In this document: positions 6,264 to 64,000 of the stretch, piece by piece
Layout of the letters: the number at the start of each line of letters is the position of its first letter
How positions within the stretch are numbered: position 1 is the first letter of the stretch
Assembly: GCA_964344485.1 (NCBI GenBank)
Contig: CAYFNF010000003.1
Location: 148,467-212,466 of the forward strand
From: an uncultured Gammaproteobacteria bacterium
GTDB taxonomy: Bacteria > Patescibacteriota > Patescibacteriia > UBA9570 > XYC2-FULL-38-9
DNA length: 64,000 bases
Reading direction: 5' to 3'
Notes under the pieces: model-generated
Database searches by the model: none
Told to the model about the DNA's origin: nothing
What the model saw: the letters and a program-made list of their open reading frames with translations, nothing else
Translations under genes and position numbers: made by a program

Positions 6264-7232
6264 ATGTATGGAATTGAAGCAGAGTATCTGATGACGAGTC
6301 ATCGCATCCAAGATGTGCTCAAGCTGCAGCTCCCGGGCGTGACCGCCGAGTTCTTCGACTTCATGGTCGAGATCATCACGGATCCGCACGCGCGTGCACG
6401 TCAGGCTGTGGACCAGCTGGAGCGTCGGGTGCAAAGAATGCGTCGACGAGGTGTGGAGCTCGAGCAGTGGGCGTCCTTCCCGGACCGAGTTCAGCCGATT
6501 ACGTTCACGGACGTGGTCGCAGACAGCCCGTACTACCGCTGGGTCTATGACCAAGCGTGTAGATTCACGGGTCATGAGCCGCTGGACCTGCACCATGTGG
6601 GCATGCACCTGAACTACTCGTGCTCGGACATGAGCGAAAACGAGCTGGTGCACGCGGTGAACTGGTGTCGGTGCATGAACTTCTTGTTCATCCTGTTCTC
6701 AGCAAACTCACCGTTCCAGAATGGGCAGTCCTGCGGGCTACTGTCACGACGGTCATATCAGTACCCCAACCGATACGACGTCCCGCTGTGGGAAAGCGCC
6801 GTCGCGTTCAAGCGCTGGATCCAGGAGCAAGAAGCGTTGTATCGCATCTACCCTGGAAAAGGTCGCTGCTGGATGACGGTCTGCCCGCGCTTAGAGGATA
6901 ATGATTTCCGCAAACCGATTCAACGGATCGAACTGCGATCGTTAGACTCAGGCACCAATGTCCGCTTCGGTGTTGTGCACGGGTGCTGCAAGCTACTCGA
7001 GCGCATTGTCTTGCGCGCACGCCAAGGAGCGCCCCTGCCAGCGCAACTGAACGAACTGCAGCACAACGATCGAGAGGTCTCGCGGCTCGGAGCAAGCGCA
7101 TGGGTACGCTTGAATGGGCAAGAGTTCTGCGTGCAGCAGCTCGCTGAACAATGGGCAGCGGGTATCGACACGCTGGAGCAGATATTAACGCACGGATGCG
7201 CAGCACAATCGTCCTTGCGCTACTGCGTTTAA
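6264..7232 (+). CDS. GCS2-family carboxylate-amine ligase (glutamate-cysteine ligase family 2 / YbdK-like amidoligase), tentative
   Basis: N-terminal GIEAEY (GxExE[FY] hallmark of GCS2/YbdK), about 320 aa, internal His-rich HHVGMH; strong AAGGAGG RBS 8 nt upstream; CDS about 60% GC. Confidence 0.45.
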   Translation: MYGIEAEYLMTSHRIQDVLKLQLPGVTAEFFDFMVEIITDPHARARQAVDQLERRVQRMRRRGVELEQWASFPDRVQPITFTDVVADSPYYRWVYDQACRFTGHEPLDLHHVGMHLNYSCSDMSENELVHAVNWCRCMNFLFILFSANSPFQNGQSCGLLSRRSYQYPNRYDVPLWESAVAFKRWIQEQEALYRIYPGKGRCWMTVCPRLEDNDFRKPIQRIELRSLDSGTNVRFGVVHGCCKLLERIVLRARQGAPLPAQLNELQHNDREVSRLGASAWVRLNGQEFCVQQLAEQWAAGIDTLEQILTHGCAAQSSLRYCV

Positions 7233-7327
7233 CTCTCTGCAACACAAAGAGAACATGGTCTAGTATGAGCCACACATCATACTTTTTTTCTTTCTTCTAA
7301 ACTGCGCCTACGAATAATAAAACGGTA

Positions 7328-8551
7328 TTATTTCATTCTGAACTTCTTCCATGGGCTCCACTTGCTCCACCCAGCATCATTGCCGCATCGCACTCTGAAA
7401 CGATAGTACTGTTTACTCTTCACGAATTTCTTTGACTTTTTCAGAAATTTTGAATTAGTAGTAAGTCCTTTAAACTTTTTCACAGATGTAAATTTCCCGT
7501 TTGCTTTCTTTTTTTGTAACACTGCTTGATAGGTATCGGCATTTGCTTTCGCTTTCCACCACAACTTTGCTGACTTCTTCTTTTTCTTTTTCACTTTCAG
7601 ATGCTTCTTTTTCTTGATCTTGCTTGGTGCAGTGAGTTCATTAATTGTAAAATTTGCTAATGCATAATCTTCTGCTGAATCTGCTGCGCCATCAGTGGTC
7701 ATAGCAACACTATGCGCTCCGGCAATCCCAGCAACAGCATCACTGATCAATAAATCATACGCATCTTCATTACTTTTAGCTACGTCGGTAAGGACCTCAC
7801 AACTGAGTACAGAATTCTGACTGAGGTCATACGTTAAAATCTCATCTAAAGTGCCTTTAGAATTGTCTATAGTTGCATCAGTTAGATCCCACCCTGATTC
7901 ACTAGGCGATTTATTCTCTGCAACAAACACAATGCTTAGCTCTTCTCCGCTAGATAATCCACGGCTAAGCGTAAAATAGAGTTCTAGATCCAGTGTAGAG
8001 CCGGCGGTTGCCTCAGTTGGAGAAACTGATAACGAACCTACGGCATTTCCAAGGCCTTGGATGGACACAGTATCATCAGTCATGGTTGCATTCGCACTTT
8101 CACTCAGAGGCTGCGTTGTAACTCCAAAGCGAATTGACGTTGCCTCATCAGGATTCACCGCATCTGCTAGGGTGACGGTATACTTGTCTGCGGGGAGTTT
8201 TGCGGATAACGTTAATACAGTGCCCCTGCCATCAAGCACTGGTGAAAAAATAAAATTGGAGTTGCCAATAGATCCCTCTGATGAAGGAACCACATTTTGT
8301 AAATTTACATACTCCGGACCGTCGTCTTCTGTAGAGAAAATTGAGATAGTTGAACCGCTGGGTAGATCTACGTTAGTAGTGACGGCGATAGTATACGTCT
8401 CGGTTTCCCCAGCAATAGAAGCTGTTGGTGCAGCGGATACTTCTGATATATTTGCATCTTCCGTTCCTTGCATGCTAAATGCTTGCGCAGATGATGGCGC
8501 GTACACCAGGACTGCTGCGATAGCGAGTGTAAGCAAGATTGTTTTTTTCAT
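7328..8551 (-). CDS. secreted protein with Sec signal peptide, Ser/Thr-rich beta-rich body and Lys-rich C-terminal tail with FN3-like end
   Basis: MKKTILLTLAIAAVLVYAPSSAQA signal; C-terminal KKKKHLKVKKKKKK...YYRFRVRCGNDAGWSKWSP. Confidence 0.5.
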   Translation of the reverse strand: MKKTILLTLAIAAVLVYAPSSAQAFSMQGTEDANISEVSAAPTASIAGETETYTIAVTTNVDLPSGSTISIFSTEDDGPEYVNLQNVVPSSEGSIGNSNFIFSPVLDGRGTVLTLSAKLPADKYTVTLADAVNPDEATSIRFGVTTQPLSESANATMTDDTVSIQGLGNAVGSLSVSPTEATAGSTLDLELYFTLSRGLSSGEELSIVFVAENKSPSESGWDLTDATIDNSKGTLDEILTYDLSQNSVLSCEVLTDVAKSNEDAYDLLISDAVAGIAGAHSVAMTTDGAADSAEDYALANFTINELTAPSKIKKKKHLKVKKKKKKSAKLWWKAKANADTYQAVLQKKKANGKFTSVKKFKGLTTNSKFLKKSKKFVKSKQYYRFRVRCGNDAGWSKWSPWKKFRMK

Positions 8552-46120: not shown

Positions 46121-46145
46121 CACCCATAACGGGTGGTTTTATTTA
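46121..46145 (+). terminator. intrinsic terminator after clpC (CCACCC-AUAA-CGGGUGG + UUUUAUUU)
   Basis: 6-7 bp GC stem followed by T-rich run; overlaps the start region of comF, so may act as attenuator. Confidence 0.45.
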
Positions 46146-46822
46146 TGAACATCTTCAAACAACTCTCAAGTAGTATTCTCGACGCACTCTTTCCTCGCCG
46201 CTGCGTTGGGTGTGGTTGTTATGATACGTGGGCATGTGCTTCTTGCGTTCAGGAGCACCGTAATGTGGAATGCTTAGATCTACTCACAGCAGACGCTCAG
46301 AGTGCTGCAACATCTATTATCACTATTGGTCTATATAGTAATCCGTTCTGGAGAGAGTTAGTGCAGTTGTTAAAGTTTCATAACGTTCGATCACTCAGTG
46401 AAGCGTTGACACAAGAGCTAGCAGCGACGCTATGGCACTATATGCAACAACAAACACACCCACAGCAACCGACTGTGCTCGTGCCGATTCCGTTACATAA
46501 GAGACGTCTGCGAGAACGTGGATTCAATCAAGCGACGGTGGTTGCGGAGCGACTCTCTGATCATACGGACTGGCCAGTTCTCGAGCAGTTGCTGTTGAGA
46601 ACTCACTACACTCCATCTCAGACCACTCTCTCTCACGAGGAGCGCGAACAAAACATTGCACACGCATTTTCGTACACCTCCGCTGAACTATCGCTGCACG
46701 GTGTTCATGTCATTTTGGTAGATGATGTTGTGACTACCGGCTCCACCGCGTTGGAAGCAGCACAAACACTGCAGGAGCTTGAACCTGCTTCTGTACATAT
46801 CGTTGCTATTGCTCGAGGGTAA
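46145..46822 (+). CDS. comF: ComF/GntX family phosphoribosyltransferase-domain protein
   Basis: N-terminal C-x2-C...C-x2-C zinc finger, C-terminal PRTase motif VILVDDVVTTGST; ATG start in frame preferred over upstream GTG. Confidence 0.75.
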   Translation: MNIFKQLSSSILDALFPRRCVGCGCYDTWACASCVQEHRNVECLDLLTADAQSAATSIITIGLYSNPFWRELVQLLKFHNVRSLSEALTQELAATLWHYMQQQTHPQQPTVLVPIPLHKRRLRERGFNQATVVAERLSDHTDWPVLEQLLLRTHYTPSQTTLSHEEREQNIAHAFSYTSAELSLHGVHVILVDDVVTTGSTALEAAQTLQELEPASVHIVAIARG

Positions 46823-46825
46823 GTG

Positions 46826-46899
46826 TGTCCCCGGCACGATTTGAACGTGCGACCTCCGGTACCGCAAACCGACGCTCTATCCAACTGAGCTACGGGGAC
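46826..46899 (-). tRNA. tRNA-Arg (anticodon read as GCG by hand fold)
   Basis: Reverse complement: acceptor GTCCCCG/CGGGGAC, D-arm GCTCAGTTGGATAGAGC, anticodon stem TCGGT/ACCGG loop TTGCGGT, T-loop TTCAAAT; anticodon assignment needs tRNAscan confirmation. Confidence 0.65.
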
Positions 46900-46980
46900 A
46901 GATTGTGTACAGCAATGAACATGCTGCAGTAACAAATGGTAAATAAAAAAAGCGTATTCGTCAATAGCTTTGTGCGTGGA

Positions 46981-47523
46981 TTATAACTTGAACATGCGGA
47001 TTGCAGTATCTCCGGCTGACTCCTCTTCTCTCTCAAGATCTTCATCGAGAAAATCCAGAAGCATCTTTCGTAAGGTGACTGGATTCTTGTCTCGCAGTGG
47101 AATCGAAAATTCTCCGCGTAGAATAGTATTTTTTGGTTTTATATAGAGCTGCTTAATTAACGGTGGTTCATAAATAACAGCAAATGACTCGATCTCACGA
47201 TAGATATAGAATCTATCACCAATCTGTACGCCGGTTTCATATATCACAAACGGTAGAATTGCAGGGTCGGAACGATGGTGTGTAAAAACAATCAACGCAA
47301 TGAGTAGAATGATTAGTGCAAACAAGAAATTACCATCTGCAATTGCATAGATCAGCAGACCACCTCCGATGAGGATGGCAAAGAAATACCAAATCGGTCC
47401 ACGTTCGTGTTTTTCATACTCTGGGAACTCCCATTGTTCTAGGACGCTTCCACGTTCAATGGGGTTTACCCCCATGCGAATGGACCGCTCTCGGTCTTCA
47501 TCTGTAAGGATTCTTTCTGGCAT
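46981..47523 (-). CDS. hypothetical membrane protein (2 TM)
   Basis: 180 aa with central hydrophobic hairpin; no motif. Confidence 0.4.
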   Translation of the reverse strand: MPERILTDEDRERSIRMGVNPIERGSVLEQWEFPEYEKHERGPIWYFFAILIGGGLLIYAIADGNFLFALIILLIALIVFTHHRSDPAILPFVIYETGVQIGDRFYIYREIESFAVIYEPPLIKQLYIKPKNTILRGEFSIPLRDKNPVTLRKMLLDFLDEDLEREEESAGDTAIRMFKL

Positions 47524-47594
47524 ACATACGTATTATAGCATTTTTTTTATCGAATGAAAAGGGGATATTTCAACTGTTTTTTACTAGATTTTTA

Positions 47595-47622
47595 TTGACT
47601 TTTTTAAAAAAATCGTTATAGT
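47595..47622 (+). promoter_or_regulatory. sigma-70-like promoter for tRNA cluster (TTGACT, 16 bp, TATAGT)
   Basis: Located about 30 nt upstream of first tRNA-like element. Confidence 0.4.
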
Positions 47623-47654
47623 TAGTAGCGCACGTTTCAGTTTGAGTGATATAT

Positions 47655-47784
47655 GGAGAGGTAGCTGAGTGGGTTCGAGCGGGCAATAAGTGAATGCATT
47701 TCTGCATTCACGGCCGCGAGAACGGGCGAACGATGCTGCAAAGCAGCCGTGAGTCCCGGATGAAAGCGATGAAATACCTCTCTT
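47655..47784 (+). ncRNA. unclassified about 130-nt tRNA-like element (type-II tRNA acceptor + D-arm, no canonical anticodon/T arms)
   Basis: Begins GGAGAGGTAGCTGAGTGGGTTCGAGC (near-identical to 5' end of adjacent tRNA-Ser genes) and ends CCTCTCT, but interior has a perfect 9-bp hairpin GTGAATGCA-TTTC-TGCATTCAC and a GCTGC-AAA-GCAGC hairpin instead of anticodon and T arms. Confidence 0.3.
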
Positions 47785-47811
47785 GGCTTCATTTCAATAT
47801 AGTTCTAACTT

Positions 47812-47903
47812 GGAGAGGTGGCTGAGTGGTTGAAAGCGACGGATTGCTAATCCGTTATATCGGTATTTAGCCGGTATCGAGGGTTCAAATCCCTCCCTCT
47901 CCG
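47812..47903 (+). tRNA. tRNA-Ser (anticodon GCT)
   Basis: Acceptor GGAGAGG/CCTCTCC, anticodon stem ACGGA/TCCGT loop TTGCTAA, long variable arm, T-loop TTCAAAT. Confidence 0.85.
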
Positions 47904-47927
47904 CAGGACCGATTTTTTTGTACGTCT

Positions 47928-48014
47928 GGAGAGATGACAGAGCGGTCGAATGTGACGGTCTTGAAAACCGTTGGGCCTTCACGGGTCCCGTGGGTTCGAA
48001 TCCCACTCTCTCCG
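47928..48014 (+). tRNA. tRNA-Ser (anticodon TGA)
   Basis: Acceptor GGAGAGA/TCTCTCC, anticodon stem ACGGT/ACCGT loop CTTGAAA, long variable arm, T-loop TTCGAAT. Confidence 0.85.
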
Positions 48015-48015
48015 C

Positions 48016-51209: not shown

Positions 51210-52427
51210 ATGGTTGATCGAATCACCAAGGTCACGCGCACTGGGTACGGATCGCGTGTGGGCCAGTCTATTGGCGGCGTTCTTATTGGACTGCTGCTAT
51301 TTGTCGCGTCGTTCGTTGTGCTCTACTGGAACGAAGGCCGGCAAGACATGTCTCTGATTGCAGCAACTGCAACTGAGATTGAAGCAGAGACAGCAAACCA
51401 AGACGCTTCATTGGATGGAACGCTCGTTTCTCTCACCGGAACACTTTCCACCGATGAAACACTTGGCGATGACTTTCTTGTTGCTGGCGACTATATCGCT
51501 GTCAAACGAACTGTCGAGATGTATGCATGGGAAGAGTCCACGTCCAGCGAAACGCACACAGAGACTGGTGGTTCTGAGACAACCGAAACTACATACGAGT
51601 ACGACACAGTATGGACAGAGACACCTGCTGACTCAGATGACTTTGAGTACTCAGGGAGTTACTATAATCCAACTAAGGAGATTGAAAGCGTCACAAAAAC
51701 TGTTACTGACGCAAAAGTAGGTGTATATGCTGTAGATGCAGACGATGCAGAACTGCCAGGTTTTGATGAGGTATCACTTTCAGAAGACAACACGTATATC
51801 CTAGATACAGCTGCTGACCTCTATTGGGAAGATCCGCTATACGACACCTATTATGAATACGGGGATCAAGCACTATCTAGTTCATACATCTACATTGGAT
51901 ACGGCACATTAGATAACCCAACGGTCGGAGACTATCGTATCAGCTACTCCGTGCTACCAGCTGGTGAAGATGTGACGGCATTCGGAGAACTAGATGGAAC
52001 AAAAGTAGCAAGCTACACAGATGAAGACGGTAACACCTTATATCGCTTGTTTGACGGCTCTCGTGAAGAAGCAATTGCAACACTACACACCGAACATGTG
52101 ACTTCTACATGGATCTTACGTGTAGTTGGATTCTTCATGATGTGGATTGGACTCGCAGCTGTGTTTGGGCCAGTAAGCACGGTACTCTCCTTTATTCCAT
52201 TCCTTGGCAAGCTCAGCAAGAGTTTAATCGGGGTAGTAGCATTTGTCGTAGCGCTTGTACTGTCAGTGCTTACCATTGTTATCTCCATGATCCTACACAG
52301 CGTTGTCGCACTGATTATTATCGGTATTCTCGTACTTGCTGGAGTCGTGCTCATTGTTATGGGATATAAGAAAAAGAAAGGTGAAACTCCACCTGCATCC
52401 CCTCCATCTCCGGAGCCTACTCAATAA
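51210..52427 (+). CDS. membrane protein, TMEM43/DUF1625-like (tentative)
   Basis: N-terminal TM with WNEGR motif, large acidic ectodomain, three C-terminal TM helices, Pro-rich tail. Confidence 0.45.
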   Translation: MVDRITKVTRTGYGSRVGQSIGGVLIGLLLFVASFVVLYWNEGRQDMSLIAATATEIEAETANQDASLDGTLVSLTGTLSTDETLGDDFLVAGDYIAVKRTVEMYAWEESTSSETHTETGGSETTETTYEYDTVWTETPADSDDFEYSGSYYNPTKEIESVTKTVTDAKVGVYAVDADDAELPGFDEVSLSEDNTYILDTAADLYWEDPLYDTYYEYGDQALSSSYIYIGYGTLDNPTVGDYRISYSVLPAGEDVTAFGELDGTKVASYTDEDGNTLYRLFDGSREEAIATLHTEHVTSTWILRVVGFFMMWIGLAAVFGPVSTVLSFIPFLGKLSKSLIGVVAFVVALVLSVLTIVISMILHSVVALIIIGILVLAGVVLIVMGYKKKKGETPPASPPSPEPTQ

Positions 52428-57028: not shown

Positions 57029-59071
57029 ATGTCTGCATCCACACCACTATCACAGTTACACGGAGTCGGGCCTTCAATAATGAAGCGTTTGAAAGTTCTT
57101 GGCATTACCACCACACATGATTTAATGTGGCACTTTCCACGTCAGTATGAGGACCGTTCACTCATGACTGATATTATTGACGTAGAACCGGATAGCAAAG
57201 TGACTATCCACGGCACGATTGAAAAAATACAGTCACGTCAGTCGTGGAAACGTCGTATCAACCTCACTGAAGCAACTGTTACTGATACTACAGGATCTAT
57301 AAAAGCGATCTGGTTTAACCAGCCGTACGTAGCAAACACACTAAAAAAGGGGGATACAGTACAGCTCTCTGGTCAAGTAAAGAAAACCAAGTACGGAACG
57401 TCTCTGCAGAGCCCGGTCTATGAGAAAGTATTTGAAGAAAAAGATACGACGCATACTGGGCGCATTGTTCCAAAGTACTCCCTGACAAAGGGTGTAACGC
57501 AAAAGCAACTTCGGTATTTTATGAAGCAGGCGCTGGAAATAGAACTCCCGGTTGAGGATTACGTCCCTGAAGAGATACTACAGGAGTACGAATTATTTCC
57601 TTTAGCTGATGCACTGCAACATATTCACTTCCCCACTTCTGAGCAGGACTTTCTTCAAGCAAAACAACGATGTGACTTCGACTCACTCTATATCATTCAG
57701 CTCTATGCGCAGCTCCTGCGTCAAGAGTTGCAATCTCAGCAAGCCTCCAGTATCGAGTTCCAGGAACGTGCGATAAAACACTTTGTTGACGAGCTCCCGT
57801 TTACGTTAACCAATGCACAAAAGAAAGCATCATGGGCCATTCTACAGGATGTAGAGAAACAGACCCCGATGAACCGGCTGCTTATTGGAGATGTTGGATC
57901 AGGAAAAACCATAGTGGCAGCGATCGCGATGTTGAATGCAGTTTTAAATGGCGCGCAAGCTGCGCTCATGGCGCCAACAGAGATTCTAGCAAAACAGCAC
58001 TATCAGACACTACAAGAAGTATTTGACACAAAGAACATCACGATTGAATTGCTCACTGGTTCTACAAAAAACGGACCAAAGCAACAACAGCTTGAAGGGT
58101 GTGCGTCTGATATCGTTGTCGGTACACACGCGTTAATTCAAGAGAGCGTCACGTTTAACAATTTAGGTCTAGCTATAGTGGATGAGCAACATCGGTTTGG
58201 GGTAGAACAACGAAAAGCGCTGAAATACCAGTCTGGGGATGAAAAAACTGCGCCGCATCTGCTGTCCATGACCGCCACCCCGATTCCACGAACATTAGCG
58301 CTAGCATTATACGGAGACTTAGACCTCTCTATTATTGATGAACTACCGACAGGTAGAAAGCCAGTCACTACGAATCTTGTTCCCCCAAACAAGCGAGAGG
58401 ATGCATATGGATTTATCCGGGAACACCTCGACCGCGGAGAGCAGTGTTTTGTGGTCTGCCCTCTGATTGATCCTTCGGATACGCTGGAAGTCAAAGCTGT
58501 CACCACAGAGTATGAACACTTGTGCAACGAAGTGTTTCCTGAGTACCAGTTAGAGATTCTACACGGAAAGATTCAGCCACAGGAGAAAGATGATATCATG
58601 CAACGCATGCGTAATAAGGAGATCGACATCTTGGTCTCCACATCTGTTATTGAAGTTGGAGTAGATATTCCGAATGCGACAATTATCGTAATTGAAGGTG
58701 CGGACAGATTTGGATTAGCACAACTACATCAATTCCGTGGTCGAGTCGGTCGTTCTGATACACAGTCATACTGCTTGCTCTTCTCCGAATCAGATAATGA
58801 ACAGACTATTAAACGGCTACAGGTACTGACGAACACCTATGATGGATTCAAGCTTGCAGAACAAGACTTACAGCTGCGTGGAGCTGGAGAGTTCTTTGGT
58901 AAAAATCAGACCGGGTTCTCCCCATTAGCAATGCTTGCGTACCAGCAGCCACAATTACTAAACAGTGCTCGCTCAGCAGCAAAACAAACACTAGCGAAGG
59001 ATTATATCTCTTCCACGCCATTGCTAAAAAAGAAAATCACTGAATTTACAAAAAGCATCCACTTAGAGTGA
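57029..59071 (+). CDS. recG: ATP-dependent DNA helicase RecG
   Basis: Wedge/OB N-terminus, helicase motif I GDVGSGKT, DEQHRFGV motif II, motif VI FRGRVGR. Confidence 0.9.
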   Translation: MSASTPLSQLHGVGPSIMKRLKVLGITTTHDLMWHFPRQYEDRSLMTDIIDVEPDSKVTIHGTIEKIQSRQSWKRRINLTEATVTDTTGSIKAIWFNQPYVANTLKKGDTVQLSGQVKKTKYGTSLQSPVYEKVFEEKDTTHTGRIVPKYSLTKGVTQKQLRYFMKQALEIELPVEDYVPEEILQEYELFPLADALQHIHFPTSEQDFLQAKQRCDFDSLYIIQLYAQLLRQELQSQQASSIEFQERAIKHFVDELPFTLTNAQKKASWAILQDVEKQTPMNRLLIGDVGSGKTIVAAIAMLNAVLNGAQAALMAPTEILAKQHYQTLQEVFDTKNITIELLTGSTKNGPKQQQLEGCASDIVVGTHALIQESVTFNNLGLAIVDEQHRFGVEQRKALKYQSGDEKTAPHLLSMTATPIPRTLALALYGDLDLSIIDELPTGRKPVTTNLVPPNKREDAYGFIREHLDRGEQCFVVCPLIDPSDTLEVKAVTTEYEHLCNEVFPEYQLEILHGKIQPQEKDDIMQRMRNKEIDILVSTSVIEVGVDIPNATIIVIEGADRFGLAQLHQFRGRVGRSDTQSYCLLFSESDNEQTIKRLQVLTNTYDGFKLAEQDLQLRGAGEFFGKNQTGFSPLAMLAYQQPQLLNSARSAAKQTLAKDYISSTPLLKKKITEFTKSIHLE

Positions 59072-59094: not shown

Positions 59095-60081
59095 TTAATA
59101 TGAACAGCCGTGCCCGGTCCATTCGTAGTGCATGTAGTCTTTTACACTGCTCCAATCTCCGCCCCACATAAACCCTTCATTCTTAAACGCATTGATTAAC
59201 CAATCTGGATAGTCACAAGCGTCTGTTCCAGTAGTAGCGTTGTAGTTTGCACACATATCTGAGGAGAATTTCTCAGTGGTGTAACACGACATGGTTTTTT
59301 TACAGTTTGGATTGTTGCTCCAATTCACATCAATAGCAAAGCCGAATGAGTGATTACTGTAACACGAGGGATTGTTTACGTTTTGACGCCAGGCCCATGT
59401 TCCCGTATGACCAAATTCAATATCATATTGAGATGACGGGTGACCGTAATTATATGCAGCTATGGTTGCAAATGCATTTTCAAACGCGAGCTGTGCATCT
59501 TTATGGACTGCAAGTGTTTTTGCATGGTCGTCCACTCCATCATCAACCGTAATGCGCACTAAGTAATTTGTGTCCACGTAATCCTTATCAAATAAATTCT
59601 CATACTTTCCTGCTAGGCAGGTCTGCATACCACTTGTACAGTTGCTAGGATCACCATCTGCCATAAATGACAGTTCTGGTACGTCAATATCTCCATAGAT
59701 AGTAAATGTTGGACTGATCATATTAATGATAGTCCACGAAAGAAGTGCGATAACCAAACCGATCAGTGCATTCGTAATACGATCCTTCCCTTCGGATACT
59801 TTCTCTTTATTTCCAGCTGCTAGCGCCCATTGCGCACCACCAAAGATTATCATCCCTACTGCAACAATCGCGATACCGCTCACCAAGAACTGGTACATTG
59901 CAGCAAGATAGTTTGGCAGATACGGTTCAGTAATATTCTGCAGTACTCCAAGGCCAACTTCTAGTTTGATCACCGCCGCTGAGACTACCATAGGAAACGC
60001 TCCACAAAAAGCCATCACAGTCGTCAGTATTCTCCGCGGAGTGAAGCGAATTGATGATGTGTGTATTGTTTTTCGAGACAT
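59095..60081 (-). CDS. membrane protein: VirB2/TrbC-like signal + two-helix hairpin module fused to C-terminal M15-family peptidoglycan peptidase domain
   Basis: Shared N-module motif IKLEV.LG...Y..FL...IAIVAVGMIIFGGAQWALAAGN.EKV.E.K.RITNAL.GLVIALLSWTI; C-terminal HSFGFAID (HxxGxAxD), FMWGGDWSS, DYMHYEW zinc-peptidase M15 signatures. Confidence 0.6.
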   Translation of the reverse strand: MSRKTIHTSSIRFTPRRILTTVMAFCGAFPMVVSAAVIKLEVGLGVLQNITEPYLPNYLAAMYQFLVSGIAIVAVGMIIFGGAQWALAAGNKEKVSEGKDRITNALIGLVIALLSWTIINMISPTFTIYGDIDVPELSFMADGDPSNCTSGMQTCLAGKYENLFDKDYVDTNYLVRITVDDGVDDHAKTLAVHKDAQLAFENAFATIAAYNYGHPSSQYDIEFGHTGTWAWRQNVNNPSCYSNHSFGFAIDVNWSNNPNCKKTMSCYTTEKFSSDMCANYNATTGTDACDYPDWLINAFKNEGFMWGGDWSSVKDYMHYEWTGHGCSY

Positions 60082-60162
60082 GTAAAATCTCTAATCAAAT
60101 AGTGTCAATACTATTGTACAAGAAAATAGCAAAAAGTCAATCTACAATCCTCCTACACTCCC

Positions 60163-60909
60163 TTATCCCTCTTGCTGAATTTTTTCGATCTCCTGCTCTA
60201 CTAACACGCGCATCTCTTCAATCGTCTTCTCTCCAGTAACAAAAGTATCATTAATGAAGTACGATGGGGCTGAGTCAATCTGCAATGTCTTTGCAATATA
60301 GTATCCTTGTACAACGAGTTGCTTTTTTGATGTACCTGAGACGCACTCAGAAAACGTTTCAGTGTCTAAACCAATATCTTCAGCAATGGAGACCCAAGGA
60401 TTCAGAATAAACTGGTCTTGATCAAAGAATAGGAGATCATGGTACGCCCAAAAAGAATCCTGGTCTTGTGCGCAGCGTGCTGCCATAGCAGCGGTCTCAG
60501 AATTTTCATGTAATCGTGGAATTGGAAAGTCCTTCCACACATGCAAAACATCATTCGGATACTCTTGAACAATCTGCTCTATAATCGGGGACATGCGTTT
60601 ACACGCTTCACATTCAAAATCACCAAATTCAACGATAGTTACTGTTGGGCTCGCTGCGCCGCGCTGCGGATCAGTTGTTAATGGTCTGGGTGTGCTATCA
60701 CTCCCGTCAATTCCAGAGGGTACTTGAGTAATCAGCGGGTCGTACGGCATGGCACTGCCGGAGACCACCTCTCCATTGGTCGCGGTCTCAGTCCCTTGAT
60801 CAATATCTGACGCAGCATGATTTGTTACTGTAGCGCTTGCAACAAATAAAATGGCGATACAAACAGCACCGAGAACAAATATAAGAACTGCGCGGTTTTT
60901 CTTTTCCAT
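60163..60909 (-). CDS. DsbA-like thiol:disulfide oxidoreductase (membrane-anchored thioredoxin fold)
   Basis: N-terminal TM, thioredoxin CEAC active site in FGDFECEACKRMSPI context. Confidence 0.65.
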   Translation of the reverse strand: MEKKNRAVLIFVLGAVCIAILFVASATVTNHAASDIDQGTETATNGEVVSGSAMPYDPLITQVPSGIDGSDSTPRPLTTDPQRGAASPTVTIVEFGDFECEACKRMSPIIEQIVQEYPNDVLHVWKDFPIPRLHENSETAAMAARCAQDQDSFWAYHDLLFFDQDQFILNPWVSIAEDIGLDTETFSECVSGTSKKQLVVQGYYIAKTLQIDSAPSYFINDTFVTGEKTIEEMRVLVEQEIEKIQQEG

Positions 60910-60912
60910 ATG

Positions 60913-62151
60913 TTACTCTAATTCAATCTTAATTAAGCTGCCAGTGGTGGAGTCTTTAAAATAGAGCGTCTCTTCATCGTCGGACACGACCATATAATCG
61001 ACCGAATATGACGCTGTTCCATTTTCATCCACTGGAGTTGCTAGCTTAGTTTTAATTCCGGTGCTCAAATTAATCTTATAGATATCGTCCGCAACATCAT
61101 TCAGTAGTCGCGGTTCTAAACCGTATGCATCTACATCTTCTGCTGGGATGCCACAGTACGCGGTACCGCCATCACTACTGATCGTACATTTATCAGCAAA
61201 CGTATTAACGTTCAACTCTTTTCTATTTTTACCGATATCATCGCCATCCGAGTCCACAATCCATAGCGACGGTTTATAACCTGTACTACTGGAGTAGACG
61301 CTATAGAGTGCTTGCTTTCCGTCGGGTGTGTATTGATATTGCAGGCCCTTACCTTCAACAATGGTTCCTTTAAAGTTCTCTCCTTTTAATCCGATAAAAC
61401 CAAGTTCTTGCCTATTAAAATCAATAAACTCTGCCCAAGTAGCAGCGACTTTCCCAGTCGGAGACCACTCGACATTCACGCGATGTGCATTATTTCCAAG
61501 TGACTCTAACGTCCGTGCTGATGAGCCGTCAGGGCTGGACACTGCAAGTACTCGACGTTCTGGATCGATATGCATGTACTTGAATGCAATCTGATTTGAT
61601 GTCGGAGAGAAATCAAACTCTTCGTACTCCTTCGGTAGAGTGACTTGTGTATTTGAGTCCAGATCATAGTAGACATTAGTACCATCGGGAAATTCTAAGA
61701 TAGTTTCATTTGTTGTGTCTGCCCATGTGACTGTATCTACTGAGCTAAATCGGGCATCACTCAATGCGGTAACCTCACCGTCTGCATTTACTTTATAGAA
61801 CTTTCCGTCTTCTGCGTCATAGTAGCGCAGCGTACCATCTTTTGCTACTGACGGATCCTGTGCGTCTGTATCCGGAGTAAGAATGTCGGTTGCGGTATTT
61901 CCGCCTAACGCAACAGCGTCCACACCTGGAACAGTGGTGGTGGTATTGATGTTTGGCTCTGCGTTGTTTACATTCTCAAGTAACTCATTCACATTCGGGA
62001 GGCCGATATTAGCGTTGTTCACATTTTCATTGGTAACATCAGGCGGCGGTTGTCTAAAAAACACAATATACAGTAAATATGCAAGAGCGATCACTGTGAC
62101 CACAAAAAGTATGATCAACAGCGTTCTTTTTAATTTAGGGTTTAGTGCCAT
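60913..62151 (-). CDS. membrane-anchored PD40/TolB-like beta-propeller protein
   Basis: N-terminal TM; repeated [SYW](S/T)PDG/T..(I/A)... blades (FSPTSNQIAF, WSPTGKVAAT, YTPDGKQALY, SSDGGTAY). Confidence 0.5.
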   Translation of the reverse strand: MALNPKLKRTLLIILFVVTVIALAYLLYIVFFRQPPPDVTNENVNNANIGLPNVNELLENVNNAEPNINTTTTVPGVDAVALGGNTATDILTPDTDAQDPSVAKDGTLRYYDAEDGKFYKVNADGEVTALSDARFSSVDTVTWADTTNETILEFPDGTNVYYDLDSNTQVTLPKEYEEFDFSPTSNQIAFKYMHIDPERRVLAVSSPDGSSARTLESLGNNAHRVNVEWSPTGKVAATWAEFIDFNRQELGFIGLKGENFKGTIVEGKGLQYQYTPDGKQALYSVYSSSTGYKPSLWIVDSDGDDIGKNRKELNVNTFADKCTISSDGGTAYCGIPAEDVDAYGLEPRLLNDVADDIYKINLSTGIKTKLATPVDENGTASYSVDYMVVSDDEETLYFKDSTTGSLIKIELE

Positions 62152-62171: not shown

Positions 62172-63317
62172 TTATACACATTTATGTTGCGAGCCGTCCC
62201 AGGTAGTACCAGGCGTACAGTCGTCACATTTATCGTCCGTACATCCTCTTCCAGGTCCTTGACACTGATAATCTGCAGTACATTCATCTCCTGGACTGCC
62301 GTCGAAACACTCATTCGCCCACTCAAATGAACAGTACATGAGCGGACTATCTCCTCCGTAACAATCTGTGTCCCCGTCGCACGAATCTCCTTCTGCTTTT
62401 GGAGTACAGGAACTGCTCACACACTTAAATCCAGAAATACAATCACTTGAGTTTACGCACGGAAGACTATCTGACCCATCACCAGTAATACAGAAATTCT
62501 CTACTGTATTACATATTCCTGACTTACAGACACTATCTGATGTACAATACGCACCTTCAGAACGATTATTCTGAGTCAAGCACTTCTTTGACGGGTCTCC
62601 TTCACAGACAAACCCGGTTTCACAGTCTGCTTCGCTCGCACAGAGCGTTCCAGAGGTAGCAGTCGTACAAACCCCAGGTGCAGACGGACTCCCGCCAGCA
62701 CACGTCATGGGTTCTATACAATTTTCATCGCGTTGACATGCTGCGCCTTCACCGTTCGTATTTGTTCCGGTTGGACGACAGACCGTTAACCCCTCACCTA
62801 CATTCACACACTCACAGCCTCCCACACAGTAACTCACGCTCGTACACGCTGATTCTGCTCCACCTGGACATTCGGTCCAGTCAGAGGTAGTACCGTCACC
62901 CGAAGCCGTAAATTCAATCCCTGTTGGACAGATATTACCGAAAATCACCATTCCATCACTAATAATGCTCATTATGGTATAAGACAGCAAAGCGAGCACC
63001 AGCCCGAGCAGTGCATTAGTAATACGTGACTTAGCTTCGTTTACTTTCTCTGAATTACCTGCAGCAAGTGCCCACTGTGCTCCACCGAACATAATCATAC
63101 CCACTGCAACAACAGCAATTGCTTGAATTAAAAACGTATACACTGCGGTAATGTACTCACCTAAGCTAATTACTTGTTCGAGAGTGCCAACTTGCACTTC
63201 TAACTTAATTGGACTGGTAATACAATCCTCTGCAAACGCAGGGAAAGCAGCGATAAACAGCCCAGTCATGACTGCGGCGAGTAATGGTATTCTTTTGTAG
63301 AGATAATGTTGTTTCAT
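62172..63317 (-). CDS. membrane protein: paralogous VirB2/TrbC-like N-module fused to large Cys-rich extracellular domain (about 40 Cys)
   Basis: N-module about 55% identical to that of 59095..60081 (VVAVGMIMFGGAQWALAAGNSEKVNEAKSRITNALLGLVLALLSYTI); C-terminal G.C/C..C repeats. Confidence 0.55.
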   Translation of the reverse strand: MKQHYLYKRIPLLAAVMTGLFIAAFPAFAEDCITSPIKLEVQVGTLEQVISLGEYITAVYTFLIQAIAVVAVGMIMFGGAQWALAAGNSEKVNEAKSRITNALLGLVLALLSYTIMSIISDGMVIFGNICPTGIEFTASGDGTTSDWTECPGGAESACTSVSYCVGGCECVNVGEGLTVCRPTGTNTNGEGAACQRDENCIEPMTCAGGSPSAPGVCTTATSGTLCASEADCETGFVCEGDPSKKCLTQNNRSEGAYCTSDSVCKSGICNTVENFCITGDGSDSLPCVNSSDCISGFKCVSSSCTPKAEGDSCDGDTDCYGGDSPLMYCSFEWANECFDGSPGDECTADYQCQGPGRGCTDDKCDDCTPGTTWDGSQHKCV

Positions 63318-63322
63318 ATGTT

Positions 63323-64000
63323 TTAAAAAATTGCACTAGCTATTTCATCAACTAAGGAGGTGACCCCTAGTTCTTGTAACGCAGACATGGCTTCTTGTAG
63401 ACGTCCCCAATTCCATGGGGTCATCAGAGCAACAGCTGCGCTAACAATGACTAGAGCGAAAATATATTGAGCAGCCATGGAGATGAATATCAGGAACTCT
63501 GTAAATAATAGTAGAACGAACAGAGCTTTTTGCGCCATGTCCGGCTCTTCAAACATCTTTGTAGATTTTAGGAACTGAGAGATAAAGCCCAGTACTGGGA
63601 TCTCTGGTAGTAGATAGTATCCGAAAAAATGTAGATGAATGTAAATTAGTGTTGATGGATCACAGCAACAGAGATCTTCGGGTAGAGCAATAAACATCTC
63701 CCATAACCACATGCGACTTCCTGGCTTTGCCATACTCGATGCATCTGCAGCAGCTCCAGCTGCATCTGCAGCGCCTCCAGCTGCATCTGCTGCACCGCCA
63801 GCGCCTTTTGCTCCTTGCTTGTCTTTTCCGAGTTGAGATGCTGCTCCAGCGCCTGCTGCAAGTCCAGCTCCAGCAACAGCGCCTGCTCCGGCTCCTACTG
63901 GTCCAGCAGCGGCTCCAGCGCCTGCTCCGGCTGCGGCAGCTCCACCAGCTCCAGCAGCGGCTCCTGCTCCAGCGCCTGCTCCGGCTGCGCCTGCACCCGC
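63323..64000 (-). CDS. membrane protein with Gly/Ala-rich low-complexity N-terminal region (partial, continues past window end)
   Basis: Reading frame stays open upstream of annotated MAKPG through GCNGCNGGN repeats to the window edge; C-terminal part has 3 TM helices. Confidence 0.4.
   Translation of the reverse strand, partial: AGAGAAGAGAGAGAAAGAGGAAAAGAGAGAAAGPVGAGAGAVAGAGLAAGAGAASQLGKDKQGAKGAGGAADAAGGAADAAGAAADASSMAKPGSRMWLWEMFIALPEDLCCCDPSTLIYIHLHFFGYYLLPEIPVLGFISQFLKSTKMFEEPDMAQKALFVLLLFTEFLIFISMAAQYIFALVIVSAAVALMTPWNWGRLQEAMSALQELGVTSLVDEIASAIF

Follow-up and report, generated by a model that had tools for sequence, protein, structure and literature searches.

A predicted M15 wall peptidase joined to a type IV secretion pilin-like membrane hairpin in a Patescibacterium

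Patescibacteria account for a large share of the uncultivated bacteria, and in one genetically tractable species a chromosomal type IV secretion system (T4SS) is essential for epibiotic growth. In monoderm bacteria, the VirB1-type hydrolases PrgK (pCF10), TraG (pIP501) and Orf14 (Tn916) are encoded within the T4SS cluster; they are membrane-anchored, their enzymatic domain lies on the outer side, and their presumed task is to make a local opening in the wall for the T4SS machine (PMC12857230). Quinonero-Coronel et al. found that the VirB1 homologues of Patescibacteria are mostly not associated with VirB4 and suggested that other hydrolases may fill the role; the wall-opening role is left unfilled in the published survey. 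ABY1 T4SS loci are known to carry recG, radA and comF (PMC12102498), and SEML1_0007 of S. epibionticum, which adjoins VirB4 and has a Hedgehog/DD-peptidase domain, was scored essential in Tn-seq (PMC10633639 Table S2).

Here we analyse a gene from a 64-kb stretch of DNA (the window) which encodes a predicted zinc-dependent, wall-peptide-cutting enzyme joined to a T4SS pilin-like membrane hairpin. The layout read from the sequence is that of a signal peptide, a VirB2-like T4SS_pilin hairpin and an M15/LAS domain with an intact active site (Table 1). The gene belongs to an ultra-small bacterium of the Patescibacteria, which is likely to be a member of the ABY1 class. Upstream, the intergenic gap holds one good match to the promoter consensus, the best of the region; since consensus sites upstream of the fusion gene are no more numerous than expected from shuffles, we consider this site weak and did not assign the gene a promoter of its own.

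Table 1. Features of the fusion gene and its neighbours (window positions; residues are those of the fusion protein)
Feature	Position	Strand	Basis or remark
Whole gene, pilin-module/M15 peptidase fusion	59095..60081	-	328 aa, ATG-to-stop, stop codon included; ORF list and Pfam
Predicted signal peptide, residues 1-35	59977..60081	-	n-region with 5 K/R, h-region, V-S-A before cleavage site
VirB2-like T4SS_pilin module, residues 36-126	59704..59976	-	PF18895, hydropathy, AlphaFold2; includes LEVxxG and ISP motifs
TM1 of pilin module, residues about 58-86	59824-59910	-	
Charged loop between TM1 and TM2, AAGNKEKVSEGKDR	59779-59823	-	
TM2 of pilin module, residues about 102-122	59716-59778	-	
Acidic linker, residues 127-144	59650..59703	-	low pLDDT; length varies among homologues
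M15/LAS zinc peptidase domain, predicted extracytoplasmic, residues 145-328	59098..59649	-	8 Cys invariant in closest homologues
Predicted zinc-binding motif H244-x6-D251, HSFGFAID, residues 244-251	59329..59352	-	aligns to H80, D87 of Ply500
FMWGGDW motif, residues 304-310	59152-59172	-	
DYMHYE motif, residues 315-320	59122-59139	-	
D315-x-x-H318 (DYMH), predicted catalytic base and third zinc ligand	59128..59139	-	aligns to D130, H133 of Ply500
Promoter-like TTGACT-16-TACAAT	60113..60140	-	in 81-bp gap upstream of fusion gene; 10/12, best consensus match of region
DsbA-like thiol-disulfide oxidoreductase, N-terminal TM helix	60163..60909	-	Thioredoxin_4 E=5.5e-22, DSBA E=3.3e-11
412-aa TM and beta-propeller-like protein	60913..62151	-	sub-threshold propeller matches only
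Paralogous pilin-module protein, 381 aa, 251-aa C-terminal part with 32 Cys	62172..63317	-	PF18895 E=3e-8
Ala/Gly-rich membrane protein, C-terminal part, runs off window	63323..64000	-	translation; homologue L004:6544-7923
recG, convergent with fusion gene	57029..59071	+	RecG_wedge, DEAD, Helicase_C domains

The C-terminal domain matches Peptidase_M15_4 (Pfam PF13539) over residues 238-321 with E=5.8e-17 and, at 62.5 bits against a cut-off of 25, far beyond chance. The three M15/LAS motifs on which a preliminary description of this DNA had based its assignment (HSFGFAID, FMWGGDW and DYMHYE) are all present, and the first and last of them display the M15 pattern of H-x(3-6)-D plus D/E-x-x-H, with an acidic base two residues before the third His; the domain also qualifies for the LAS/Hedgehog-DD-peptidase fold. 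That description had staked its assignment on the alignment of the zinc ligands as well, and these do align in a profile-to-PDB comparison with Ply500 (2vo9), where SNHSFGFAID pairs with SNHNYGVAVD and KDYMHFE with KDYPHFE. Transferring the roles of the Ply500 residues (H80, D87 and H133 as zinc ligands, D130 as base), we read the predicted active site as intact, with H244, D251 and H318 binding zinc and D315 acting as the base. H and D at positions 244 and 251 are kept in 90/90 fusion representatives and D315-x-x-H318 in 88/90, the other two having gaps there. In sequence comparisons, the solved structures closest to it are those of L-Ala-D-Glu endopeptidases, including the phage endolysins Ply500 and LysB4, and the domain is predicted to be a zinc-dependent peptidase acting on peptidoglycan stem-peptide bonds. 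Its AlphaFold2 model is moderately confident (pLDDT 76) and gave no significant Foldseek matches. Annotation pipelines label relatives of the fusion simply 'M15 family metallopeptidase'.

The two-helix, pilin-like membrane module that had been proposed for the N-terminal part is borne out by three lines of evidence. T4SS_pilin (PF18895) matches residues 70-122 (E=2.7e-9; 37.4 bits, cut-off 26.6), the hydropathy profile has the h-region of a signal peptide followed by a pair of hydrophobic helices (~58-86 and ~102-122) with a charged loop between them, and AlphaFold2 places helices at 55-86 and 92-122 with pLDDT >90. The NCBIfam Mbov_0395 pilin-like model scores 30.6, below its cut-off of 40, and some PF18895 members also match TrbC (PF04956). 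Across six full-length relatives of 39-45% identity, 20 residues of the module are invariant. The VirB2-like layout of signal peptide, two hydrophobic helices and short charged loop is found in full, and homologues of the fusion have N-termini equivalent to the predicted signal peptide, whose cleavage site was placed by eye from sequence and hydropathy, not by a predictor. What sets the protein apart from a small pilin (about 90-180 aa, ending soon after helix 2) is that ~200 residues follow the module; the best 120 stand-alone PF18895 relatives are 76-187 aa long, with a median tail of 13 residues. Charged residues are distributed unevenly, with 5 K/R in the n-region, 4 K/R in the loop, and 0 K/R and 5 D/E in the segment after TM2. 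From this topology we infer that Sec export and signal-peptide cleavage would leave the hairpin in the cytoplasmic membrane much like a VirB2 propilin, with the short basic loop facing the cytoplasm and both termini outward, which would therefore put the peptidase domain in the wall compartment.

Searching with the module HMM, we found no stand-alone pilin in the window or in L004 and L040, two of the related contigs that we compared (L numbers throughout); all VirB2-like genes that we saw in these T4SS loci are thus fusions. The module of the 381-aa Cys-rich paralogue encoded nearby and the module of the M15 fusion share 62% identity. Where proteins with different cargo come from the same genome, their modules share 62%, 75% and 57% identity, compared with a median of 45% for orthologues between genomes, as would be expected if the modules must fit one machine or co-polymerise.

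The fusion gene closes a conserved block, in which it is preceded by the genes for the beta-propeller-like protein and the DsbA-like oxidoreductase. The order bprop-DsbA-pilinM15-RadA is found in L003 (a 4.4-kb contig that ends within radA), L004, L039 and L040, where the DsbA-like gene occupies the same position as in the window, directly upstream of the fusion gene; L004, L039 and L040 also have recG after RadA, in the opposite orientation, and recG/radA flank the block in L001, L004, L035, L039 and L040. The best conserved gene of the block is that for the 412-aa protein (57% identity to L004:7971-9233), which is kept in L001, L003, L004, L035, L039 and L040; we assigned it to no family, its propeller matches being below threshold and a PDB relative lacking. 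In L004 and L040, p637-PrgI-p240-VirB4-p209-AGrich runs straight into the block. In L039 it is not contiguous with VirB4, and two relatives of the fusion lie elsewhere: P0002 (L001) is 8 kb away from the block, and P0006 (L036) sits among gatA/ndk-type genes outside a T4SS locus. The layout of L004 and L040, where the block comes directly after a VirB4/PrgI cluster and has radA/recG at its flank, is in agreement with the published ABY1-class T4SS locus. Besides recG, a landmark of that locus, the window encodes a PRTase that we read as ComF-like; it is housekeeping DNA (rpoD, dnaG, clpB, recG, pyk, ppdK, efp, rpsF and tRNAs).

Since the window ends at 64000, where the AG-rich gene runs off it and short of the expected VirB4 genes, the T4SS link in the source genome rests on the related contigs and on this AG-rich ORF, whose homologues come after VirB4-p209 in related contigs (the L040 gene at 6485-7948). 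Membership of a chromosomal VirB4/PrgI T4SS locus is seen directly in the synteny of the relatives, and by extension we infer it for the fusion gene of the source genome. An association of M15_4 domains with VirB4 extends beyond this block: metagenomes yielded 80 loci for an M15 relative, and 31 of these have VirB4 upstream in the same orientation at a distance of up to 10 kb; two further loci, from viral contigs, are without VirB4. Three other VirB4-adjacent arrangements of M15_4 came to light, namely Phage_lysozyme2+M15_4 proteins in Saccharimonadia-type loci (searches for relatives of the query brought up the M15_4 domains of L018, L050, L009 and L105), a 1042-aa protein that ends in an M15_4 domain and is encoded right behind VirB4, and, in gut contigs, Glucosaminidase+M15_4.

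The fusion is common. A word-indexed search (10 matches) and the module profile, which returned stand-alone pilins only, had suggested extreme rarity; an exhaustive HMMER search overturned this, yielding 107 representatives below 1e-30. Among 156 classified proteins (clusters at 50% identity), at least 90 combine the pilin module with M15. The cargo in the 65 other module-bearing proteins includes VanY (7), Peptidase_M15 (6), SLT (6), SLT_3 (4), SLT_2 (1), M23 (1) and C39_2 (1). VanX-type M15 and lysozyme-like domains are among the cargoes, and altogether the wall hydrolases joined to the VirB2-like module come from at least six Pfam families; VirB1 itself canonically has an SLT domain. The pilin-M15 fusion would be a widespread variant of the wall-opening enzymes carried by T4SS machines. 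We found neither M15 nor pilin-hydrolase fusions mentioned in the survey of Patescibacteria T4SSs, its supplements included, or in a 2025 T4SS review (PMC12857230), and we did not find the pilin-hydrolase fusion design described in the literature searched.

Taken together, we favour, with a probability of about 0.68, a T4SS-associated, membrane-tethered, extracytoplasmic peptidoglycan peptidase of a Patescibacterium that acts as an analogue of VirB1. The DsbA-like enzyme of the adjoining upstream gene may oxidise the eight conserved Cys of the peptidase domain, the pilin-like module would bring the peptidase to the T4SS assembly site, and cleavage of peptidoglycan stem-peptide bonds would make way through the wall for the machine or for its fibre. 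The role would be that of the VirB1/PrgK/TraG-type hydrolases in other T4SSs, performed with a different catalytic domain and anchor. A cluster-encoded, membrane-anchored wall hydrolase with its catalytic domain outside is what the L004/L040 synteny and the predicted topology describe, and the likeness to VirB1 is one of functional analogy only. That such an enzyme may be needed for T4SS function has indirect support in the essentiality of the LAS-domain gene SEML1_0007 in S. epibionticum. In the query, Pfam detects M15_4 and T4SS_pilin only, with no VirB1/SLT, CHAP, muramidase or LytM homology.

The module could instead be a true pilin subunit, placed in the T4SS fibre or at its tip, with the peptidase cutting the wall of the host bacterium, possibly after being freed by processing after TM2; Cys-rich, SLT, M23 and C39-like cargoes would then share the same fibre. 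We hold this to be unlikely. The module does score above the PF18895 threshold and keeps the conserved loop and helix residues of the family, with 20 positions invariant across proteins of 39-45% identity; stand-alone pilins are absent from the loci searched, within-genome modules are more alike than between-genome orthologues, and the cargo is diverse. Both subunit termini face outward in VirB2 and F-type pili, and the Patescibacteria T4SS with its pilin arrays is essential for epibiotic growth in a system without relaxase and coupling proteins. However, a helical fibre of the VirB2 type could hardly accommodate a domain of ~200 aa on every subunit; typical PF18895 members end a median of 13 residues after the module, and polymerisation, export beyond the membrane and a processing site are all without evidence. 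Nor is there a conserved adjacent immunity gene: we rejected this candidate because the small ORFs upstream in L001 and L036 share no relationship, and neither has a counterpart in the window. The pilin search, moreover, covered 64 kb of the source genome, and stand-alone pilins may be encoded elsewhere. It is equally doubtful that the module works as a pilin and that the lineage builds a T4SS fibre whose subunits, or else its tip or minor subunits, carry enzymes and binding domains (M15, VanY, SLT, M23, C39-like, Cys-rich) on outward C-termini. Were it so, the epibiont would connect to its host by means of a fibre that bores through the host's wall, and the genome-specific, homogenised module with its swappable cargo would amount to a cassette system comparable to polymorphic toxins.

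An improbable account is that of a housekeeping, wall-remodelling carboxy- or endopeptidase of the CwlK/LdcB/VanY kind on a co-opted two-helix anchor, with the T4SS neighbourhood being a coincidence. The nearest unfused relatives are indeed ordinary M15 family proteins of 200-230 aa, some labelled CwlK by their source, some fusion genes lie outside T4SS loci (L036, L001), and the pipeline label for the relatives is equally generic. Coincidence sits poorly with a block order that is kept in five contigs across proteins of 36-44% identity and is contiguous with VirB4 in two of them, and with M15_4 adjoining VirB4 in two other kinds of locus, the Saccharimonadia-type and the gut contigs. The anchor, furthermore, belongs to a T4SS-specific family with conserved non-hydrophobic residues, unlike a generic TM segment, and at least five other hydrolase classes are found on the same module.

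The preliminary description had likened the N-terminal fusion to T4SS-associated lytic enzymes or SAR-endolysins and expected it to bring wall-cutting activity to an assembly site; of the two comparisons, the analysis supports the former. A phage endolysin of the SAR type or a prophage remnant, kept inactive by its membrane segment until membrane depolarisation sets it free, would account for the closest solved sequences being the phage endolysins Ply500 and LysB4 and for weak PHROG endolysin matches (E about 6e-6), which are limited to the M15 motifs. Against this, the neighbours give no PHROG matches and the window is housekeeping DNA, in line with the earlier remark that prophage context is absent; an IMG/VR scan gave two partial M15 matches, with no fusion and no full-length relative; chromosomal synteny is kept across genomes; and the protein has a cleavable signal peptide and two strongly hydrophobic helices (KD19 up to 2.36), not the one weakly hydrophobic, Gly/Ala-rich N-terminal helix of SAR proteins. 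We regard the phage reading as effectively refuted by PHROG, IMG/VR and the housekeeping context, and its probability as very small. Smaller still is that of a VanY/VanX-type D-Ala-D-Ala peptidase for glycopeptide resistance, as no vanH/A/R/S-like genes were found among the window ORFs scanned, the nearest solved proteins are L-Ala-D-Glu peptidases and the T4SS synteny is contrary.

As a VirB1 analogue, the fusion would be a candidate for the wall-opening function in an ABY1-type T4SS locus, and M15 would join the catalogue of T4SS-associated hydrolase domains. The family offers concrete proteins for asking whether the Patescibacteria 'pilus' is a real fibre, whether it bears enzymes, and whether the target is the host's wall or the bacterium's own.

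How, then, does this protein compare with known systems? SAR endolysins likewise hold a wall hydrolase at the membrane by an N-terminal hydrophobic region; the query differs from them in lacking a phage context and in having a signal peptide with two stable TM helices of the pilin family. Ply500, LysB4 and CwlK (MEROPS M15C; 2vo9, 6akv), which are either soluble modules of phage endolysins or small enzymes that are secreted, are without the pilin module, the Cys-rich insertion (residues 253-292) or the T4SS context of the query. VirB1 homologues are anchored by a single N-terminal TM helix, unlike the signal peptide and VirB2-like hairpin seen here, and share no sequence homology with the query. 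While the catalytic domains of monoderm VirB1 homologues are of the SLT, muramidase, CHAP or LytM type (PMC12857230), that of the query is M15. SEML1_0007 of Ca. Southlakia epibionticum, found beside VirB4 in a Patescibacteria T4SS locus, has a LAS/M15 domain like the query; this protein and the Saccharimonadia-type Phage_lysozyme2+M15_4 proteins are 420-1110 aa long, with lysozyme-like or unknown regions and no PF18895 module, whereas the query has the module. Finally, the stand-alone Patescibacteria pilins (PF18895; arrays SEML1_0014-0019), in whose published survey the fusions go unmentioned, resemble the query module in signal peptide, two helices, AAGN...K.RI loop and, going by the related contigs, T4SS locus; these pilins are 76-187 aa long and the part behind the module has a median of 13 residues, where the query has an enzyme of 200 aa.

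In the ORF listing of the window the pilin-M15 gene is one 328-aa reading frame running from ATG to stop codon, and its product matches two Pfam families above their curated cut-offs: T4SS_pilin (PF18895; residues 70-122, E=2.7e-9) and Peptidase_M15_4 (residues 238-321, E=5.8e-17). The preliminary description had proposed an M15 hydrolase tethered to a pilin-like membrane hairpin, citing three C-terminal motifs; these are all present, as HSFGFAID (residues 244-251), FMWGGDW (304-310) and DYMHYE (315-320), and together with the two profile matches they make the observation real and rule out chance. Judged by profile, the protein is a member of both Peptidase_M15_4 and PF18895, while the sole NCBIfam match, to a 'pilin-like conjugal transfer protein' of a mycoplasma ICE, falls below threshold. 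In the NCBI annotation (P0001, 306 aa) translation begins at M23. Since the ATG 22 codons upstream, which adds window positions 60016-60081 (-), yields a proper basic n-region resembling that of the homologues, P0001 is probably truncated at its N-terminus. The relatives are named just 'M15 family metallopeptidase' or 'hypothetical protein' in the databases.

Hydropathy analysis reveals three hydrophobic stretches. The first is part of a predicted N-terminal signal peptide (residues 1-35) with five K/R in its n-region and V-S-A preceding the predicted cleavage site. The other two are the strongly hydrophobic helices of the pilin module (~58-86 and ~102-122), connected by a loop with four K/R, AAGNKEKVSEGKDR, and followed by an acidic linker. 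AlphaFold2 models the hairpin with pLDDT >90 and the remainder with moderate confidence (mean 76). Applying the positive-inside rule to this charge pattern, we infer a topology of the VirB2/TrbC propilin type, with a cytoplasmic loop and both termini facing outward, which would place the C-terminal domain outside the membrane.

PDB sequence and profile searches returned only the L-Ala-D-Glu endolysin domains of Ply500 (2vo9) and LysB4 (6akv). Alignment of the zinc ligands had been named beforehand as the test of the M15 assignment, and in a profile alignment the active-site residues do align with Ply500 (SNHSFGFAID/SNHNYGVAVD and KDYMHFE/KDYPHFE): H244, D251, D315 and H318 correspond to Ply500 H80, D87, D130 and H133, after subtraction of the 12-residue tag of the PDB chain. 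We take H80, D87 and H133, and hence H244, D251 and H318, to be zinc ligands, and D130, and hence D315, to be the catalytic base. H244 and D251 are kept in 90/90 fusion proteins of our exhaustive search and D315 and H318 in 88, the remaining two being gapped there; R232 is kept in 80 of the 90. The near-complete conservation of the four active-site residues argues that the enzyme is under selection for catalysis rather than being a binding domain that has lost its activity. Eight cysteines (148, 155, 240, 260, 266, 277, 289 and 326) are invariant among the six closest homologues.

The window is ordinary chromosomal DNA (rpoD, dnaG, clpB, recG, pyruvate kinase, PPDK, EF-P, S6, ABC transporter genes and five tRNAs), and no phage-family match was found among the scanned neighbours of the gene, in keeping with the earlier impression that prophage context is missing. 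The gene is the last in a co-directional minus-strand string and is convergent with recG. Because the dsbA-like gene is a neighbour of those for two Cys-rich exported proteins, its product suggests itself as the enzyme that makes their disulfides. The 251-aa Cys-rich part of the paralogue has no Pfam match and may be a cargo of this kind of module with an adhesin-like or structural role. For the beta-propeller-like protein, 57% identical to its Ca. Kerfeldbacteria (L004) counterpart and found in all related loci, we found neither a family assignment nor a solved relative.

Features of the window
Feature	Position	Strand	Remarks
Giant ORF, 1179 aa	14671-18210	-	no Pfam match
Giant ORF, 1849 aa	18215-23764	-	N-terminal Peptidase_M48 match; C-terminal ABC1 kinase-like domain
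Giant ORF, 1789 aa	23833-29202	-	beta-helix/NosD, purple acid phosphatase N, TSP3 repeats
Giant ORF, 996 aa	37602-40592	-	no Pfam match
PRTase-domain protein, read as ComF-like	46133-46822 (46825-48015 also listed)	+	~12 kb from the block; adjoins tRNA-Arg and two tRNA-Ser
TMEM43 family (PF07787)	51210-52427	+	strong match (E=3.9e-55) in a bacterial genome
Pilin-M15 gene	59095-60081	-	
DsbA-like oxidoreductase	60163-60909	-	between beta-propeller-like protein and pilin-M15 gene
TM plus beta-propeller-like protein, 412 aa	60913-62151	-	best conserved gene of the block
Paralogous pilin-module protein	62172-63317	-	251-aa C-terminal part with 32 Cys; module 62% identical to that of pilin-M15
Ala/Gly-rich (AG-rich) membrane protein, C-terminal part	63323-64000	-	runs off window end

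A word-indexed search recovered only six full-length homologues (39-44% identity), along with P0008 and P0009, which join the pilin module to Peptidase_M23 and to a C39-like peptidase, respectively. Among species-representative genomes and metagenomes, full-length relatives lie in L003 (Patescibacteria), L004, L039 and L040, and the fetched loci were classified using HMMs of both domains and the L004 proteins as queries. All four share the order beta-propeller protein-DsbA-pilin-M15-RadA (the 4.4-kb L003 contig breaks off inside radA), and in L004, L039 and L040 an oppositely oriented recG comes next. The block of L004 and L040 directly follows p637, PrgI (VirB3-like), p240, a VirB4-like ATPase (P-loop_TraG, TraC_F_IV), p209 and an AG-rich membrane protein, p637, p240 and p209 being proteins of this T4SS cluster. 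Not every relative conforms: in L039 VirB4 is not contiguous with the block, the gene for P0002 lies 8 kb from a block whose slot holds a different pilin and M15-like fusion, and that for P0006 is elsewhere in its genome. The ORF cut by the window end, whose product combines an extended Ala/Gly-rich stretch of low complexity with a hydrophobic C-terminal end, is homologous to the AG-rich proteins that follow VirB4-p209 (459 aa in L004, 487 aa in L040); most probably, then, such a T4SS locus reaches into the window with its distal end, its VirB4 part lying beyond, and the AG-rich protein looks like an unannotated part of the ABY1-type locus. T4SS loci of the ABY1 class commonly carry recG, radA and comF (PMC12102498), which the locus layout matches; recG and the PRTase read as ComF-like fit this association, and radA was not seen beside the block within the window.

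The M15 domain also accompanies VirB4 elsewhere. A VirB4 homologue lies at most 10 kb upstream, in the same orientation, in 31/80 metagenome loci recovered through M15 motifs, and in neither of the two loci from viral contigs. In Saccharimonadia-type loci (L018, L050), PrgI-p240-VirB4 is followed after ~3 kb by a Phage_lysozyme2 plus M15_4 protein; in L009 and L105 VirB4 is immediately followed by a 1042-aa protein carrying M15_4 at its C-terminus; and in human-gut metagenome contigs (L063-L092; e.g. L066:7471-10420) a VirB4-like ATPase directly precedes a Glucosaminidase plus Peptidase_M15_4 protein. If these gut contigs are not Patescibacteria, the association of M15_4 hydrolases with T4SSs would extend beyond that phylum. 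In Ca. Southlakia epibionticum, SEML1_0007, which adjoins VirB4 (SEML1_0008) and has a Hedgehog/DD-peptidase domain at residues 951-1105, is scored essential in Tn-seq (PMC10633639); according to a survey of Patescibacteria T4SSs, the peptidase and lysozyme homologues encoded downstream of virB4 in this species are essential, and canonical VirB1 homologues are mostly unlinked to VirB4 in Patescibacteria (PMC12102498). Going by gene order, M15 domains accompany T4SSs repeatedly.

An exhaustive HMMER search with the full-length profile gave 107 cluster representatives below 1e-30. The best 150 representatives (146 new) and ten proteins of the first search made up a classified set of 156 distinct proteins, 90 combining the module with an M15 domain and 65 with other content, in which Pfam recognises VanY (7), VanX-type Peptidase_M15 (6), SLT (6), SLT_3 (4), SLT_2 (1), M23 (1) and C39_2 (1). 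SLT is the canonical VirB1 domain. By these architectures the pilin module repeatedly serves to carry hydrolases. Its 120 best stand-alone relatives measure 76-187 aa with a median tail of 13 residues after the module, whereas the pilin-M15 protein is too large to be a small stand-alone pilin. Four database proteins (P0247, P0250, P0327 and P0332) contain two to six tandem T4SS_pilin modules each, with 4-12 predicted TM helices, which is unusual for a pilin family. Within one genome, modules attached to different cargoes share 62% (window, 59704-59976 versus 62920-63210), 75% (L001) and 57% (L035) identity, above the median of 45% for orthologous modules between genomes, and 20 module residues are invariant across proteins 39-45% identical. 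This pattern indicates that the module does more than anchor a protein nonspecifically; it seems tailored to a partner particular to each genome, and the within-genome likeness suggests either that cargoes are swapped like cassettes or that modules are homogenised to suit a single machine.

The best-supported reading, to which we assign a probability of roughly two in three, is that the pilin-M15 protein is a functional VirB1 analogue working with the T4SS. An extracytoplasmic zinc peptidase, stabilised by presumably DsbA-dependent disulfides and anchored by a VirB2-like membrane hairpin, would be brought by this hairpin to the T4SS, dock there and cut peptidoglycan stem peptides, opening a passage through the wall for the machine or fibre. 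Of this picture the domains, the intact active site and the gene order in related contigs are established; the topology, the dependence on DsbA, the docking and the bond cut are inferred. The main rival, in which the module is a true pilin and the enzyme, displayed on the fibre or its tip, attacks the host wall, is unlikely: a search with the module HMM detects no stand-alone pilin in the window or in L004 and L040, and the homogenisation of modules would fit, but the bulky cargo and a polymerisation that would have to be assumed count against it. A purely housekeeping peptidase is more improbable still, given the conserved block order and, in L004 and L040, the linkage to VirB4. The hydropathy of the three hydrophobic stretches and neighbours devoid of phage-family matches leave a phage SAR endolysin with very little credibility, and a Van-type resistance enzyme has the least of all.

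Pilin-hydrolase fusions, or M15 as a T4SS hydrolase domain, were not found described in the Patescibacteria T4SS survey with its supplements (PMC12102498), the main text of the Southlakia paper (PMC10633639) or a 2025 T4SS review (PMC12857230). Because it lacks SLT, CHAP, muramidase and LytM homology, the pilin-M15 protein falls outside the VirB1 family, yet the way of working proposed for the functional analogue is like that of PrgK and TraG, membrane-anchored VirB1 homologues of monoderm T4SSs (PMC12857230).
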